Assembly (NCBI GenBank): GCA_000996355.1
Contig: LCAH01000010.1
Span: 1-55,664, forward strand
From: Candidatus Uhrbacteria bacterium GW2011_GWC2_41_11
Lineage (GTDB): Bacteria; Patescibacteriota; Patescibacteriia; UBA9934; GWF2-40-263
Direction of reading: 5' to 3'
DNA length: 55,664 nucleotides
The notes under the pieces are model-generated. The model ran no database searches. It saw only the letters and a list, made by a program, of their open reading frames with translations, and was not told the origin of the DNA. A program made the position numbers and the translations under genes. Shown here in pieces: positions 5,877 through 52,814 of the stretch (position 1 is the first letter of the stretch; every line of letters begins with the position of its first letter).

Positions 5877-6497
5877 ATGGAACTTCTCATATTGTTGGGA
5901 ATCGGTGGAATCGGTTTAAGTATTGCATTCGTCGTCTCCCGGCTACGGCGCCACACTCCTCGCATCTCCAAATTGGAGAGCAAAAAAGTGGCTGCAAACC
6001 CCGCTTCGCTCAAGGTTGGCAGCACTGTGTACCTGGACGATGCGGATGATACATTCGATGTCCAGGCTGTTTCCCGTTACGAAGTCAAAAACGAACCAGA
6101 CGATTTCTGGTACGAATTCGAGATCTTCGATTCAATCGGAAACCGCACATCCTACCTCGCCTGCGAACGTGACGAAGAAGATCGCTGGCGCTGGAGCACG
6201 CACCGAAAGTTGAACACCGGTGATGTCGCGAATCCACTTGACGCAAACGGAAAACCGTTCCGTGAATTCACCATCGAGGGTCGCACATGGCGTGTTGCCC
6301 CTGATTGTTTCAACTACCAAACTCACTCAAAGGGTACACGTATCGATCGTCCGGAAGAAGTACAGGAAACAGTCCGCATCACGGATTATGTTCCGACGGA
6401 CGGATCCGCGCATGAATTGAGTATCGAAGTGTGGAAGGGTGGCATGTGTGTGACTATTGGTCAGGCATGTCAAAGCAAAATCCTCGTTCTTTCCTAA
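5877..6497 (+). CDS. DUF4178-like protein with N-terminal TM anchor
   Basis: N-terminal hydrophobic helix, then LKVG...FDV...RY...WYEF...YLACE...W; SD AAGGAGG; operon context. Confidence 0.7.
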   Translation: MELLILLGIGGIGLSIAFVVSRLRRHTPRISKLESKKVAANPASLKVGSTVYLDDADDTFDVQAVSRYEVKNEPDDFWYEFEIFDSIGNRTSYLACERDEEDRWRWSTHRKLNTGDVANPLDANGKPFREFTIEGRTWRVAPDCFNYQTHSKGTRIDRPEEVQETVRITDYVPTDGSAHELSIEVWKGGMCVTIGQACQSKILVLS

Positions 6498-9297: not shown

Positions 9298-9603
9298 TTA
9301 TTCTGTTCTCTCTTCAAAAACCGCTTGAACTTGGAGCAAATCTCCTTCTCGATGCGGAAAAGCCTCAAGGAAACTAGCACGGTTTATTTTATCTGAAGAA
9401 GTAACTTCATCTGTGCGCCAGACATTTGAAAGACCTGATCCATGAGCCAGTTCAGGAACTCCTTCCGTATCCAATGATTGAAGTTTAGCAACATATTCTA
9501 AAATAGAACCGATCTGAACGCGATATCGTTCTGCTTCTTCCTCTGTGATTTGCAAACGTGCCAACCTGGCAATGTGGTGAACCTCTTCAATAGTCAATGA
9601 CAT
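9298..9603 (-). CDS. gatC: Asp/Glu-tRNA amidotransferase subunit C
   Basis: EEVHHIARLARL, ILEYVAKL and WRTDEV motifs; directly upstream of gatA. Confidence 0.95.
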   Translation of the reverse strand: MSLTIEEVHHIARLARLQITEEEAERYRVQIGSILEYVAKLQSLDTEGVPELAHGSGLSNVWRTDEVTSSDKINRASFLEAFPHREGDLLQVQAVFEERTE

Positions 9604-9610
9604 AATTTTA

Positions 9611-9735
9611 TAGGACCTTTCTCGTTTTGCCCATTTTGGGCTTACCATGCACCATCTGGTGCATGGCTTACGGGGACCCCAGTTTTTCTCGCTGTACTTG
9701 ATTGAGTACAGCTCGATAAAACTGAGAAAGTTCTA
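9611..9735. repeat. MITE-like structured element, copy A (125 bp)
   Basis: Ends TAGGACCTTTCTC ... GAGAAAGTTCTA; flanked by TTTTA on both sides; core TCGCTGTAC..TGAGTACAGCTC shared with 30576-30699. Confidence 0.7.
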
Positions 9736-9737
9736 TT

Positions 9738-11792
<2,055 letters not shown>

Positions 11793-30136: not shown

Positions 30137-30568
30137 TTATGACAAACGCAGATGTTCATCAATCGCCGCATTCACAAGTGCATCTGCTTCTTTATTGCGT
30201 TCACGAGGAATATGTTGAATACGCACGTGTTTAAATGCACACATAAGATTTCGAACCTCAAGAAATCGTTTTGCAAGTTCTGGATTCTTCACTCGATATT
30301 CTCCTTTAAGTTGTTTCGCAGCAAGCTCTGAATCCATATAGAGTTCAACGTGCTCAACCTCAAGCTCTTTTGCTCGAGTCAGTCCCATCACGATGGCTTG
30401 ATATTCTGCCTGATTATTTGTTGTTTCTCCCACGTACGCATGCAAGGCAGCAAGAATTTCTCCTTCTGTTCCATCTTCATGAAGAAATTTAATGACAGCT
30501 CCGGATCCTGCGGGACCTGGATTTCCTCGCGCTCCACCATCTGTGTAAATACGTACGTGTTTGATCAT
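30137..30568 (-). CDS. rnhA: ribonuclease HI family protein
   Basis: YTDGGARGNPGPAG, TNNQAEY, DSEL and NKEADALVN motifs; start set to the ATG at 30568. Confidence 0.92.
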   Translation of the reverse strand: MIKHVRIYTDGGARGNPGPAGSGAVIKFLHEDGTEGEILAALHAYVGETTNNQAEYQAIVMGLTRAKELEVEHVELYMDSELAAKQLKGEYRVKNPELAKRFLEVRNLMCAFKHVRIQHIPRERNKEADALVNAAIDEHLRLS

Positions 30569-30575
30569 AGATTTA

Positions 30576-30699
30576 TAGGACTTTCTTATTTGGCGCATAC
30601 CTTTGTCGAAATCTGCGTTTTTTGTTCGCTGTACCTGTGAGTACAGCTCACAAAAAGCCTCGATTTCTCCTTGGTCTGCATCCAAATGCGAAAGTCCTC
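30576..30699. repeat. MITE-like structured element, copy B (124 bp)
   Basis: Ends TAGGACTTTC ... GAAAGTCCTC; flanked by ATTTA on both sides; folds as one rod; same core hairpin as copy A. Confidence 0.7.
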
Positions 30700-30714
30700 A
30701 TTTAGATAAAAAGA

Positions 30715-32451
30715 TCAGGTGTTAGGGACAAGATCCACTACTTTCAACTGAATTTCTCGATTCCCTTTCCATTCATTCAAACCAACTTCATACGCCACGT
30801 CAACATGCATGCCAACAGAAAATGTTTGCGCAAGAGTTCCAAAACCAAATGCCACAAATCGTTTCATCATTCCATTTGCATTCTTTAAAAGAAAACGAGC
30901 ATGTTTTTCATCTTTTCCCATGTATTCGATGGCTACCATTTCAAGATTTCGCGTGCAAAAAATAGGAACTCGATTTCCTTCTCCAAATGGTTCAAATCGT
31001 TGGAGATCTTGAAATAAAGGCCAACCAATTTCTTCCAAGTTCACCTCGGCCTCAATCAAAAGCTGGGGAGTAAGTTCTGTATGCGAAAGTATTTCATCTG
31101 CACAAGCCGTCATCACCTCTACGGCTCGAAGGAAACGATCTTCCCCTGTTGTGGAAAATCCGCATGCTTGCGGGTGCCCGCCAAAACGATCCAAGTGTTC
31201 TGCCGCTGCCTGCAATGCTTGTGTAATATCAAATCCAGGAATACTGCGTCCGGATGCAACAAATTTTTCCCCATCCTTTCCAACAACAAACACAGGACGA
31301 TGAAATTCATAGAGTAACTTTCCAGCCACGAGTCCAACCAATCCGGCAGACCATCCTTCCTCAACAGCCACAAGCAAATTTTTTCCCGTCATTTCTGTGA
31401 GTTTTGCACGCGCTGTTTGATACATTTGTTCACTCGCTTTTTGGCGAGCAAGATTGGTTTCGTGAAGTTCTCCTGCCAAACGTGTTGCCTCTGCCGAATC
31501 TTCACTTAATAAAAGTTCAAGGGCAACAGATGCATGATGCATGCGTCCTGCTGCATTTAAACGCGGACCGATTTGAAATCCAATGGTCCATGTATCAATT
31601 TTCCCCGGGATAATTCCTGCGACCTCAAACAATTTTTGTAAACCAATACGACGTGTTTTGTTTAAAACCAATAATCCAAACATTTCGAGCACGCGATTTT
31701 CTCCTTGTAAAGGCATCACATCCGTCACGGTCGCAATCGCAACCAAATCCAATAACCACTTCTCGTATCCTTCCGGAAAATCAGCTCCGTGTTTTCGTGC
31801 TTCAGAAAAAAGAGCACTCACAAATTTAAATGCCACTCCTGTTCCGCACAAATGCTTATTTGGAAATATTTCTCCCGGAACAAGAGGATGAAGAAGAATC
31901 GCTTCCTGAGGAATGAGGTCCGGCACTGTATGATGATCACAAATAATAGTATCGATGCCCAGTGCTTTTGCACGAGCAATCGCTGGCGCATTACTGATTC
32001 CGCAGTCGACCGTGATAATCAAATTTGCTTTTTCTTGTTCATACAAATGTTCGGCTGTTTCTGGAGAAAATCCATATCCCTCTTTTTCCCGATGAGGAAT
32101 ATAAAAAGAGAGCTGATGTTCGTCAAATCCGCATGCCCGGCAAATATCACGCAAACCGGATAAAAGCACTGCGGATCCGCACACGCCATCTGCATCATAA
32201 TCTCCATGAATCACAATTTTTTCTCCTTGTTCAAGAGCCGTAAATGTTCGTTCAACCGCACGCGAAATGTGTTGAAATAAAAATGGATCGCATGTATCTC
32301 GATTCCAGTCCGGACCCAAAAAAATATCCATGCAATCTTGTGTTTGCTGATTCCGATTCCAGAGCAATTGCAAAAGAACGGAAGAATATTCCGGAAATGA
32401 TAAACGAACATCTTCCGAAATCGTCTCGGCAACACACCAACGTTTCGTCAT
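30715..32451 (-). CDS. recJ: ssDNA exonuclease RecJ
   Basis: HGDYDADG, TVDCG, CDHH, TVTDVM, NAAGR and GGHPQACG motifs. Confidence 0.97.
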   Translation of the reverse strand: MTKRWCVAETISEDVRLSFPEYSSVLLQLLWNRNQQTQDCMDIFLGPDWNRDTCDPFLFQHISRAVERTFTALEQGEKIVIHGDYDADGVCGSAVLLSGLRDICRACGFDEHQLSFYIPHREKEGYGFSPETAEHLYEQEKANLIITVDCGISNAPAIARAKALGIDTIICDHHTVPDLIPQEAILLHPLVPGEIFPNKHLCGTGVAFKFVSALFSEARKHGADFPEGYEKWLLDLVAIATVTDVMPLQGENRVLEMFGLLVLNKTRRIGLQKLFEVAGIIPGKIDTWTIGFQIGPRLNAAGRMHHASVALELLLSEDSAEATRLAGELHETNLARQKASEQMYQTARAKLTEMTGKNLLVAVEEGWSAGLVGLVAGKLLYEFHRPVFVVGKDGEKFVASGRSIPGFDITQALQAAAEHLDRFGGHPQACGFSTTGEDRFLRAVEVMTACADEILSHTELTPQLLIEAEVNLEEIGWPLFQDLQRFEPFGEGNRVPIFCTRNLEMVAIEYMGKDEKHARFLLKNANGMMKRFVAFGFGTLAQTFSVGMHVDVAYEVGLNEWKGNREIQLKVVDLVPNT

Positions 32452-34967: not shown

Positions 34968-35069
34968 GCTTTCCCCTGTTGAAAAGAACCTCGCTAAACA
35001 CCTTGTTCAGCCGAATAAACAAACCACAAAAAAACAAAATTGTCAATAGATTATAGCAAAATCCACATT

Positions 35070-44018: not shown

Positions 44019-45189
44019 GTCACCGTTCGGTTTTTGGCGCCTGGATTCCAGGAATCTGAGGCCAAGGGATTCCATCCTTGATTGTTATTTGAAGAGGGGA
44101 TTTCCCGTTCAGATGTTTGAAGGGACGGTCACAGTCGGTGAAGGGACTCGTCCTTCGACGGAGAAGCCAAGCGTTCAGAAAGGTTCGTGCCGAGAGGAAT
44201 GTTTGAAACCCTTTCATGGTTTTGAGTCTTCCTTTGAGGTGTGAATTGAATGATTCGATGATATTGTTCGTTGCTGGACAATCGGGAATCGATTGATAGA
44301 CAAACAAGGTCTCTTCATGATTCCGGATATGGAGGAGGATTCCTTCGAGGAGAAGATCCCCTTTGGCGTATTTATGAAAGAGATGAGCGAAACCAAGTTC
44401 TCGCTCCTCTTTTGTTTTTGGAAGGCGGAAGATCCACTTCACGAGGGAATGAAAGAAATGACGATATGTCGGATCTGTCCTCGTATTCAGGAGTTTGCGA
44501 ATGTTCTCAAGATAATGGGTATGACAGAGTTGGATCTTGGCTTCTGGAAATATCTGAAACAGGGCTGATTGCAGAGGAAATACCGAGTCGCAGACGACGA
44601 CCTTCAAGGGATAATCCATCTTTTTGAGTTGTTGAAAATATCGGAGGAATGCTTTCTCATCTTCCGAAGAAACAAGAAGACCGAGTGGAAAATCATGGGA
44701 CGAAAAATCGACCCCCCAGAGCCAAGGGATCGATTTTTTGTTTGGAGATTTGATCGAGAGTATCTTCACATACTTCCCGTCGAGGTTCAGAATCCCTGAC
44801 CACTTCGATGGGTCACAGAATTGTTTTGAAATCTCTGTATTGGAAGGAAGGGATTCCATCTCCCGAAGCACACGAGCAAATGTCTGAGCCGGAGACAGAC
44901 ACTCCTCCTGTCCCAACTTGCGAAACGGGAGACCGTCAACATACGGAATCCAAAAAGGAGAAGAAGAAACTCGATGATCAACAGAGAATCTTCCCCCGCA
45001 TGTTTTACACAGAAAGCGATTGATTCCATTCCGCACCCCTTTCTTTATTGTCTCGAATGAACCGCACTCAGGACACGTTGGATTCCTTTTTTTGGGGTCA
45101 TACAGAGCATTTAACCAGTTAAAGACCTGTATCTTAGCTCAACACAAACAAAAAAACACCTTTTCAGGCGCCAATTTCCGAACGGTCTC
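44019..45189 (-). mobile_element. insertion sequence, IS256/Mutator-like superfamily, 1171 bp
   Basis: 9-bp direct repeat GCTTCGGTG at 44010-44018 and 45190-45198; 27-bp imperfect terminal inverted repeats (21/27 identical). Confidence 0.93.
44020..45036 (-). CDS. DDE transposase (true start lies further upstream, ~45101-45105)
   Basis: LNLDGKY (D), VVCDS (D), QLCHTH (CxxH) and TNNIIESFNSHLK (E). The zinc ribbon CPECGS...CKTC begins upstream of 45036 in the same frame. Confidence 0.9.
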   Translation of the reverse strand: MRNGINRFLCKTCGGRFSVDHRVSSSPFWIPYVDGLPFRKLGQEECLSPAQTFARVLREMESLPSNTEISKQFCDPSKWSGILNLDGKYVKILSIKSPNKKSIPWLWGVDFSSHDFPLGLLVSSEDEKAFLRYFQQLKKMDYPLKVVVCDSVFPLQSALFQIFPEAKIQLCHTHYLENIRKLLNTRTDPTYRHFFHSLVKWIFRLPKTKEERELGFAHLFHKYAKGDLLLEGILLHIRNHEETLFVYQSIPDCPATNNIIESFNSHLKGRLKTMKGFQTFLSARTFLNAWLLRRRTSPFTDCDRPFKHLNGKSPLQITIKDGIPWPQIPGIQAPKTER

Positions 45190-52735: not shown

Positions 52736-52814
52736 CCTAGAACCAATGCTTCCGAAATGAAGCCAGTGATACCTTAGCTAAAAAATACAAAATTGTCAAT
52801 AGTTTTAAACAAAA

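Follow-up and report, generated by a model that had tools for sequence, protein, structure and literature searches.

Two hairpin elements preceding gatC and rnhA in a groundwater Patescibacteria bacterium are probable MITE-like insertions of a widespread ERIC-like repeat family

Why should a strongly folding element of some 125 nt lie between two genes of an operon, just before a start codon, and why should this happen twice in the same DNA? The question arises in a window of 55,664 nt (the whole stretch of DNA analyzed) from a Patescibacteria (CPR) bacterium near Candidatus Uhrbacteria, found in groundwater metagenomes; the segment is also present in NCBI assembly GCA_000996715.1, whose contig LCAU01000004.1 carries copy A (defined below), and it recurs across many assemblies of groundwater metagenomes. 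Groundwater sequencing runs containing the organism include SRR6482222, SRR3989339, SRR29904084, and SRR3309152. The minus-strand gene order is ligA (9738-11789), gatC (9298-9603), gatA and, further along, recJ (30715-32451), rnhA (30137-30568), cysS, with the genes that are given coordinates here assigned by Pfam. One element lies in the ligA-gatC spacer (copy A) and one in the recJ-rnhA spacer (copy B). We consider it probable (roughly 70%) that both are non-autonomous, MITE-like insertions of a widespread family of ERIC-like hairpin repeats, which would be defined more by a conserved internal core than by its ends.

Sequence inspection and folding place the 125-nt form of copy A at 9611-9735, inside the spacer running from the ligA stop to the gatC start, and copy B (124 nt) at 30576-30699, inside that from the recJ stop to the rnhA start, both on the minus strand. 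Copy A is flanked by the direct repeat TTTTA. On the gatC side (9606-9610), the repeat and 2 further nt make up the 7-nt gap before the gatC start codon (9601-9603, minus strand; the N-terminus aligns with relatives' GatC); on the ligA side (9736-9740), it includes the ligA stop codon TAA (9738-9740, minus strand). Copy B lies between ATTTA repeats at 30571-30575 (rnhA side) and 30700-30704 (recJ side). Its end is likewise 7 nt from a start codon, that of rnhA (30566-30568, minus strand), and the recJ stop codon TGA (30715-30717, minus strand) stands 10 nt before the outer ATTTA. Read on the plus strand, the ends of copy A are TAGGACCTTTCTC...GAGAAAGTTCTA, matching at 11 of 12 positions with one indel, and the inverted ends of copy B (TAGGACTTTCTTATTTGG and GAGGACTTTCGCATTTGG) match at 15 of 18. 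The terminal dinucleotides are TAG.../...CTA in copy A and in a third copy described below (L096), copy B having G for T at one end; in all three, the 4-5-bp duplicated flank sits outside the terminal TA. The elements, 124-156 nt in size, contain no transposase gene.

Similarity between A and B is confined to the termini and one hairpin, the remainder being unalignable and the hairpin occupying a different position in each copy. In copy A this hairpin, GCTGTAC-N8-GTACAGC, is found at 9691-9712 (one match in the window versus 0.04 expected), and in copy B at 30628-30647. On the minus strand, it forms the center of a module flanked by GA on both sides: GA-GCUGUACU-CAAUCA-AGUACAGC-GA in copy A (9689-9714) and GA-GCUGUAC-UCACAG-GUACAGC-GA in copy B (30626-30649). 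Copy A also holds the perfect palindrome CCATGCACCA-TC-TGGTGCATGG (9646-9667), a 10-bp hairpin whose 5′ arm, CCAUGCACCA, aligns to a conserved AAUGCGCC block in the profile of the wider superfamily. Copy B has, on the minus strand, a 5′ core motif CGAGGC (30657-30662; superfamily consensus CRAGG) and a 3′ core motif AACGCAG (30613-30619; superfamily form ACGMAG). The coordinates, inverted ends, TTTTA and ATTTA repeats, shared hairpin, copy A palindrome, and 7-nt distance from the ATG that an earlier note on this DNA had listed are all present in the sequence.

The predicted folding energies are -57.8 kcal/mol for copy A (z = -8.7) and -56.9 kcal/mol for copy B (z = -8.4), with none of 200 shuffles as good in either case. 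Copy A is predicted to be multi-branched, with a terminal stem, the tip hairpin, and three more small hairpins, and copy B to form a single long imperfect hairpin. The last 7 nt before the AUG are left unpaired in the predicted fold. No Rfam 15 family was matched by A, by B, or by any of 20 related loci, whether gathering thresholds or permissive E-values were applied.

Comparison with relatives shows that, judged at the ligA-gatC junction, copies A and B are insertions. The ligA-gatC spacer measures 134-165 nt in the source organism versus 1, 1, 16, 9, and 4 nt in the five relatives read, all of which conserve the order ligA-gatC-gatA and are without an element between ligA and gatC. The earlier note had proposed looking for such empty sites, and five out of five were found. 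It had also pointed out that removal of copy A together with one repeat leaves the compact junction TAA-AATT-ATG, which falls within the relatives' 1-16-nt range. The relatives share 58-66% LigA identity with the source, none closer occurring among 5.8 billion proteins; since they are this distant (at most 66%), the insertions could be old. Each copy has a flanking duplication of its own: TTTTA/TTTTA for A, ATTTA/ATTTA for B, and ATTGG/ATTGA for L096. With three copies in AT-rich flanks, a chance origin of these repeats is unlikely, and the duplications, of 4-5 bp, look real. The inverted ends, the copy-specific flanking repeats, and the five empty sites together bear out the earlier description of the copies as non-autonomous and MITE-like.

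The enzyme that would mobilize such an element was sought in the window and in the wider family. The window's sole IS, an IS256-family element at 44022-45186, has ends (ACCGTTCGG...) unrelated to those of A and B, as the earlier note had said. Its suggested search for a transposase with the same ends produced none, either in this IS or in the repeats of the multi-copy genomes described below; no autonomous partner was found, and no Y1 transposase occurs among eight window proteins scanned.

The third copy of the sub-family, L096, comes from another Patescibacteria MAG and combines features of both window copies. Its ends, TAGAACTTTCTC/GAGAAAGTTCTA, are those of copy A, with inverted ends matching at 12 out of 12 positions, and its interior aligns with copy B over the full length (~85% identity by eye). 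The flanks, ATTGG and ATTGA, match at four of five positions. A small gene has its ATG 7 nt from the element's end, and the stop codon of the upstream kinase gene is the element's own terminal TAG. Relative to its genes, L096 is inverted compared with A and B, so the shared orientation that the earlier note had taken as a feature of the element is not a fixed one; the superfamily as a whole is also mixed. The 7-nt spacing to the ATG, present in all three sub-family copies (A, B, and L096), is therefore independent of orientation and not a property of the RNA. There was little alternative room for insertion at two of the three junctions, given a 4-nt spacer at A and overlapping ATGA genes at L096. 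We tentatively ascribe the spacing to a preference for AT-rich pentamer targets combined with selection. The targeting of SD-less leaders that had been suggested is indistinguishable from selection within tiny spacers: Most window genes lack a Shine-Dalgarno sequence and have AT-rich leaders, so the leader retained after insertion looks ordinary. Copies in Peregrinibacteria have related ends (TAGAACCTTTC... and GGAACCTCT...) and 3-4-bp flanking repeats, both read by eye.

Copy A is structurally unstable: Among genomes ~99.9% identical over 20 kb of flanks, it exists in three versions. One, of 156 nt, occurs in nine or more contigs. In the window, copy A has 125 nt and is missing a 31-nt hairpin toward the 5′ end (RNA sense); at the indel site, 9718-9719, most of the organism's other assemblies have the additional 31 nt (minus strand CGACCAGTTTGGGTGCACGGGGTGCAAGTTT, which makes a small hairpin flanked by AGTTT repeats). 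Copy A of the NCBI strain (L041) keeps the 5′ hairpin and lacks a different 31 nt, comprising the final hairpin together with all of the 3′ inverted end, in a deletion that reaches up to 8 nt before the ATG. Copy B is invariant across assemblies except for one SNP. Contigs end inside both elements, two in A and five in B, three of the latter at the same base just before the tip. The 31-nt variants are seen in assemblies and could be assembly artefacts; if they are real, the full structure of copy A, even the arm on the start-codon side, is dispensable.

No further copy of the element occurs in the window and 10 kb past its left end (~65 kb, two copies in total), and the strict hairpin pattern had no match with one genome per species in a collection that leaves out the source species. 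The search for further copies that the earlier note had called for thus failed near the window and succeeded elsewhere, in L096 and in a wider family. A metagenome scan, of samples other than those of the source, recovered a betaproteobacterial sub-family and a CPR copy in a 23S-5S spacer. Hairpin scans revealed elements of the same size and shape in other CPR lineages, a Bdellovibrionota genome, an unplaced GC-rich bacterium, and many Betaproteobacteria; they also returned chance matches in coding DNA. Motifs that the search did not require are common to all these elements: CRAGGC on the 5′ side, AACGMAG on the 3′ side, and a tip flanked by GA on both strands. The hairpin of the earlier note is the tip of a larger conserved core, composed of RAGGC, a stem, GA-GCNGUAC-loop-GUACNGC-GA, a stem, and ACGMAG.

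A wider core pattern (GAGCNGTAC, loop, GTACNGCGA, 8-30 nt, ACGMAG), applied to one genome per species, matched at least 120 loci versus ~19 expected by chance (our own estimate, which assumes uniform base composition). Among the matches listed, 56 are CPR loci (Saccharibacteria, Peregrinibacteria, Peribacteria, Paceibacterota, Harrisonbacteria, Gracilibacteria, and others) and 17 are from Myxococcales; the rest of those listed fall in Actinomycetota, Pseudomonas, Variovorax, Bdellovibrionales, and others. They include 77 non-redundant long hairpins (at least 28 pairs around the tip). When these members are aligned, CRAGG shows at least 90% conservation at its C, A, and G, none of which the search had demanded. 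Two resemblances were considered and rejected: that of the betaproteobacterial core to the 5S rRNA junction, the 5S model giving no match at E up to 1, and that of the tip to domain V of a group II intron (GAGCCGUA...), for which no intron family matched.

In several genomes the wider family behaves as a non-autonomous repeat that is dispersed and was amplified recently. At least nine copies, seven of them 98%-99% identical, occur in the Myxococcales MAG JBBRMA01; among the matches listed, the Actinomycetota MAG JAHIPE01 has five copies (95%-99% identical), a second Myxococcales MAG five, and a Peregrinibacteria MAG four. The repeat unit of the multi-copy genomes spans 110-185 nt with perfect inverted ends of at least 18 nt, contains no ORF, and often coincides with contig breaks. 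Minimum-free-energy boundaries overshot into the flanks, and the ends of selected copies were read by eye.

That A and B belong to this family follows from a profile (R3) built from 75 elements of other genomes, with no sequence from the source organism and with the close relative L096 included. R3 matches copy B over its full length (80.8 bits, E = 9e-21) and the 156-nt form of copy A also over its full length (20.1 bits, E = 4e-4); in the 125-nt form of copy A only the tip is matched (17.1 bits, E = 3e-3). Only the 7-bp tip is kept as consensus structure in the MAFFT alignment of the 75 members, so R3 is essentially a sequence profile. A second model, R1, made from the betaproteobacterial sub-family, gives copy B 25.4 bits over the full length, a score that the reverse strands of true members equal; R1 is thus not discriminating and mostly sees a long hairpin bearing the tip. 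The earlier idea of a new element family stands insofar as A and B are members of a real repeat family; it does not stand as an isolated family, since the 75-element profile finds copy B at 80.8 bits. A full-text literature search with the hairpin sequence yielded unrelated primers only, and one for ERIC-like or MITE elements in CPR bacteria found nothing relevant.

The internal core bears marks of a structure. Compensatory changes are seen at 22 of 36 predicted pairs in the betaproteobacterial sub-family, and the tip stem covaries at one pair: It reads GCUGUAC in most members and GCCGUAC in Ralstonia (U-A to C-G). Two Ralstonia species share the same 89-nt core at non-homologous loci and with different outer stems. 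Just 15 records contain this 89-nt core, each megaplasmid having a single copy. In 25 out of 26 elements, folding is better for the tip-sense strand than for the complementary one, an asymmetry that comes partly from the GA/GA mismatches themselves. Superfamily elements between co-directional genes number 14 antisense and four sense, a count that leaves out A and B (both sense, and scored as far/same by the ORF cut-off). Covariation, strand folding, and mixed orientation together suggest that the core behaves as a structure under selection rather than as part of a host mRNA. A core kept across phyla with variable ends is also the reverse of a typical MITE, and the core may have a function of its own.

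The closest known counterpart of copies A and B is the ERIC (IRU, RU-1) repeat. ERIC has been in use for strain typing for decades, and how it arose and spreads is an old question. At 127 bp, it is close in size to the 124-125 nt of A and B; both are long imperfect hairpins whose ends begin with TA (apart from the one end of copy B that has G for T), both are intergenic and often within operons, and in both the copies with indels keep a good fold. The ERIC plan was read from actual copies of E. coli, Klebsiella, Yersinia, and Salmonella. The consensus is TATACCC...GAGTTGCAGGAAGGCGGCAAG...CCCCAG-GA-GCTTAC-loop-GTAAGT-GA-CTGGGG...GCGCAGCCAACGCACCTGCAAC...GGGTATA, and the ERIC core, UGCAGGAAGGCGG ... 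GA-GCUUAC-loop-GUAAGU-GA ... ACGCAGCCAACGCAC, follows the same plan as that of the copies, UGCAGACCAAGG..CGAGGC ... GA-GCUGUAC-loop-GUACAGC-GA ... AACGCAG..UAUGCGCC. The end sequences, however, are unlike those of A and B, and ERIC has TA at its flanks whereas A and B have 4-5-bp duplications outside a terminal TA. ERIC is reported from Enterobacteriaceae and Vibrionaceae only (PMC10969869), whereas the host here belongs to the Patescibacteria. ERIC is described as a 127-bp MITE with TA termini that is co-transcribed with its neighbors, alters mRNA stability through an RNase E site in an orientation-dependent manner, and has no known transposase (PMC2229807, PMC3184786, PMC10969869).

Two kinds of search bear on the relation to ERIC. 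A descriptor written from non-enteric members (GA-hairpin-GA with RAGGC and AACGMAG) retrieved family members and E. coli ERIC only, with no false positive in 1.02 Mb. A covariance model of seven ERICs (R2), run over 52.6 kb with filters off, ranked the family member L055 first (26.1 bits, E = 2e-4), followed by L047 (E = 0.07) and copy B (E = 0.44), all with correct coordinates and strand; with default filters, R2 gave no matches. In the other direction, R3 gives ERIC only 5.7-6.9 bits (E = 2-4). The profile link between copy B and ERIC is not significant and runs through the intermediate L055. The copies are thus ERIC-like in architecture, and common descent with ERIC is plausible. More tentatively, and at somewhat less than even odds in our judgment, A and B may belong to an undescribed pan-bacterial superfamily of hairpin repeats with a conserved, strand-asymmetric core, of which ERIC would be the enterobacterial branch. 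Members were found in Patescibacteria, Myxococcota, Actinomycetota, Beta- and Gammaproteobacteria, Bdellovibrionota, and others. Within the limits of the searches made, we know of no earlier description of the elements with an ERIC-like core as one group.

Other small repeats resemble A and B less closely. REP and REPIN sequences are, like the copies, extragenic palindromes acting as hairpins, and intercistronic REP copies can stabilize upstream mRNA. REP units are 20-40 nt with a 5′ GTAG-type tetranucleotide, number in the hundreds, and are associated with a RAYT (Y1) gene; A and B are four times longer and have inverted ends and flanking duplications. Rickettsia palindromic elements (RPE) are likewise hairpin repeats of ~100-150 nt in small genomes, in or next to genes, and a similar trait is seen here in RNase H and GatC gene calls that read in frame through the elements; RPE typically lie inside coding regions and encode a conserved peptide. 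Correia elements have, unlike the copies, 24-26-bp inverted ends, a TA duplication, an IHF site, and promoters, and they contain words such as CAAGGCGACGAAGC. The Correia or NEMIS elements of Neisseria, MITEs of about 104-157 bp, are small and hairpin-forming with TA termini, and as with the copies, an internal segment distinguishes long forms from short ones; Correia elements are co-transcribed, and their hairpin is an RNase III substrate (PMC10969869, PMC2229807).

Could A and B instead act as RNA? They might be cis-acting modules for translational coupling or gating, or an intercistronic processing or stability site; in the coupling version, a ribosome at the upstream stop would melt the 5′ arm and so free the 3′ arm and the AUG. 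Several features agree with this: the GA-flanked tip lies on the mRNA strand in both copies; in the predicted copy A fold, the ligA stop stands at the 5′ foot, with the gatC AUG 7-8 nt past the 3′ foot; an SD-like GAAAGG is located in the 3′ arm of copy A; all three sub-family copies end 7 nt before an ATG; and ERIC in Yersinia changes the stability of neighboring transcripts according to its orientation (PMC2229807). We nevertheless find such a module quite unlikely. The relatives, which have spacers of 1-16 nt and lack the element, express these gene pairs as well, L096 stands inverted at an equal distance from its ATG, superfamily elements between co-directional genes are mostly antisense (14 versus four, A and B not counted), and no Rfam family matches. 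The earlier proposal of an RNA module affecting translation initiation is further weakened by the three copy A versions in ~99.9% identical strains, among which L041 is missing the final hairpin along with the 3′ arm, and the window form another 31 nt. That A and B are unrelated structured spacers with motifs shared by chance is the reading that would best suit their failure to align outside termini and tip and the only mild enrichment of AGGACTTTC-like words (24 matches in the window with at most one mismatch versus 15 expected). We regard it as already refuted, and its probability as negligible, given the 0.04 matches to the tip pattern expected in the window, the descriptor's lack of false positives in 1.02 Mb, the R3 E-values for copy B (9e-21) and the 156-nt copy A (4e-4), and the joining of A-type ends to a B-type interior in L096.

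A different mode of spread is also one that we judge unlikely: The core would be a strand-specific structured RNA or single-stranded DNA recognized by a conserved partner and spreading in a structure-specific way (by HUH/Y1 enzymes or an RNA route) rather than by a DDE transposase. Motifs conserved across phyla with variable ends, compensatory changes at 22 of 36 pairs with a covarying tip stem, the better folding of the tip-sense strand in 25 of 26 elements, and the common 89-nt core of the two Ralstonia species at different loci and with different outer stems all point this way, as does the fact that a transposase has never been linked to ERIC (PMC2229807). The 4-5-bp flanking duplications, on the other hand, fit staggered-cut (DDE-type) insertion. 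Hairpin-dependent HUH transposons (IS200/IS605) typically make no duplication. No partner has been identified, the strand asymmetry is partly automatic from the GA/GA mismatches, and the reverse strands of true members equal copy B against R1.

Under the preferred reading of A and B as MITE-like insertions, each copy would have inserted, at a very tight gene junction, into an AT-rich pentamer lying two bases before a start codon and duplicated it, presumably by means of an enzyme supplied in trans. Copy A would most likely be co-transcribed with ligA-gatC, and copy B with recJ-rnhA, each folding into a compact hairpin. Such an insert may be tolerated because the fold would reunite the stop codon upstream with the AU-rich leader and AUG downstream. 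If the element influences expression at all, this is probably incidental and not its reason to exist; by analogy with ERIC, effects on mRNA stability or coupling are possible. A TATAAA next to the ATG was considered as a promoter and rejected: It lies 3 nt from the start codon, and the transcript would start inside the gene.

CPR genomes are tiny and dense, and repeats within the 4-17-nt junctions of essential operons (here those of DNA ligase with Glu-tRNA amidotransferase genes and of RecJ with RNase H and CysRS) show a tolerance of selfish DNA. The inserts that survive would be those that fold compactly and spare the upstream stop, the downstream start, and a few leader bases. If the superfamily is real, a core shared across phyla implies a conserved recognizing partner or structure-dependent spread, and the 98%-99% identical copies of genomes such as JBBRMA01, JAHIPE01, and the Peregrinibacteria genome JACRIC01 would make the mechanism of ERIC-type mobilization directly searchable. 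Should the core plan truly be common to many phyla, the question of ERIC's origin would become open to comparative genomics.

The elements also affect annotation, with gene calls extended through them and several assemblies breaking inside. Record look-ups were empty for an alternative rnhA start (153 aa) and for the last window gene. Public gene calls run through both elements, lengthening RNase H to 182 aa (39 additional codons) and GatC to 111 aa (10-15 additional codons).

The family has a 116-nt betaproteobacterial sub-family, with members in Massilia, Janthinobacterium, Zoogloea, Rhodocyclaceae, and Ralstonia (loci L044, L048, L052, L053, L056, L057, L026, L028, L031, L032, and L037). 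It carries additional conserved loops (CCGUAGCGAGCG / GCGCAGUAGG), shows strong covariation (22 out of 36 pairs), and has no entry in Rfam. Ralstonia megaplasmids hold one copy each, at loci that differ between two species. In Pseudomonas, we find a single family copy in each of six species (L076, L090, L126, L139, L153, and L172), with similar flanks; these copies look like one site kept across the species and not like a repeat that has dispersed. A tandem pair, with copies 127 nt apart, occurs in a Bdellovibrionales metagenome-assembled genome (L122, 5548-5760).

Three family members adjoin stable-RNA genes (L036, 1649-1779; L088, about 6295-6426; and L142, 1583-1714). One of them is located in an rRNA operon from a CPR bacterium, between the 23S and 5S genes, and the 23S gene of this operon contains large insertions; a tmRNA gene adjoins one, and a tRNA-like sequence (taggctgggtagctcagttggt) lies directly against one.

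In nine CPR loci, eight of Saccharibacteria type and one from Peregrinibacteria (L069, L121, L124, L129, L135, L152, L160, L161, and L169), a long ORF passes uninterrupted through the element. These copies may be intragenic, in-frame insertions, as reported for ERIC and the Rickettsia palindromic element (RPE). Reading frames also run into both copies in the window: the rnhA frame has no stop through copy B (30569-30685), and the gatC frame none into copy A (9604-9648). Public gene calls, at loci L016-L020 and at L041 of the NCBI strain of the same organism, give an RNase H of 182 amino acids, with a TTG start within copy B, and a GatC of 111 amino acids; the N-termini of both are probably over-extended. 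Among all genes of the window, most starts have AT-rich leaders without a Shine-Dalgarno sequence, and a clear one (AAAGGAG at -12 to -8) is seen at a minority.

The window also contains an insertion sequence of the IS256/Mutator family (44022-45186), with 22-nt inverted ends (ACCGTTCGGTTTTTGGCGCCTG) that are 86% complementary. Its minus-strand ORF (44020-45036) encodes 338 amino acids and may be truncated, since IS256-family transposases are usually longer. In the closest relative, a fragment of a Y1 (IS200/IS605-type) transposase is located at a contig end (L038, 18080-18286), a few kilobases from the empty ligA-gatC site; we saw no tie between this fragment and the elements.

A separate AT-rich repeat of 33-40 nt, containing TTGACAAT (TTTTGTTATATTCTATTGACAATA...), is present three times in the window, at 918-957 on the plus strand and at 35029-35061 and 52775-52814 on the minus strand, and looks like a promoter or operator region common to the three sites.
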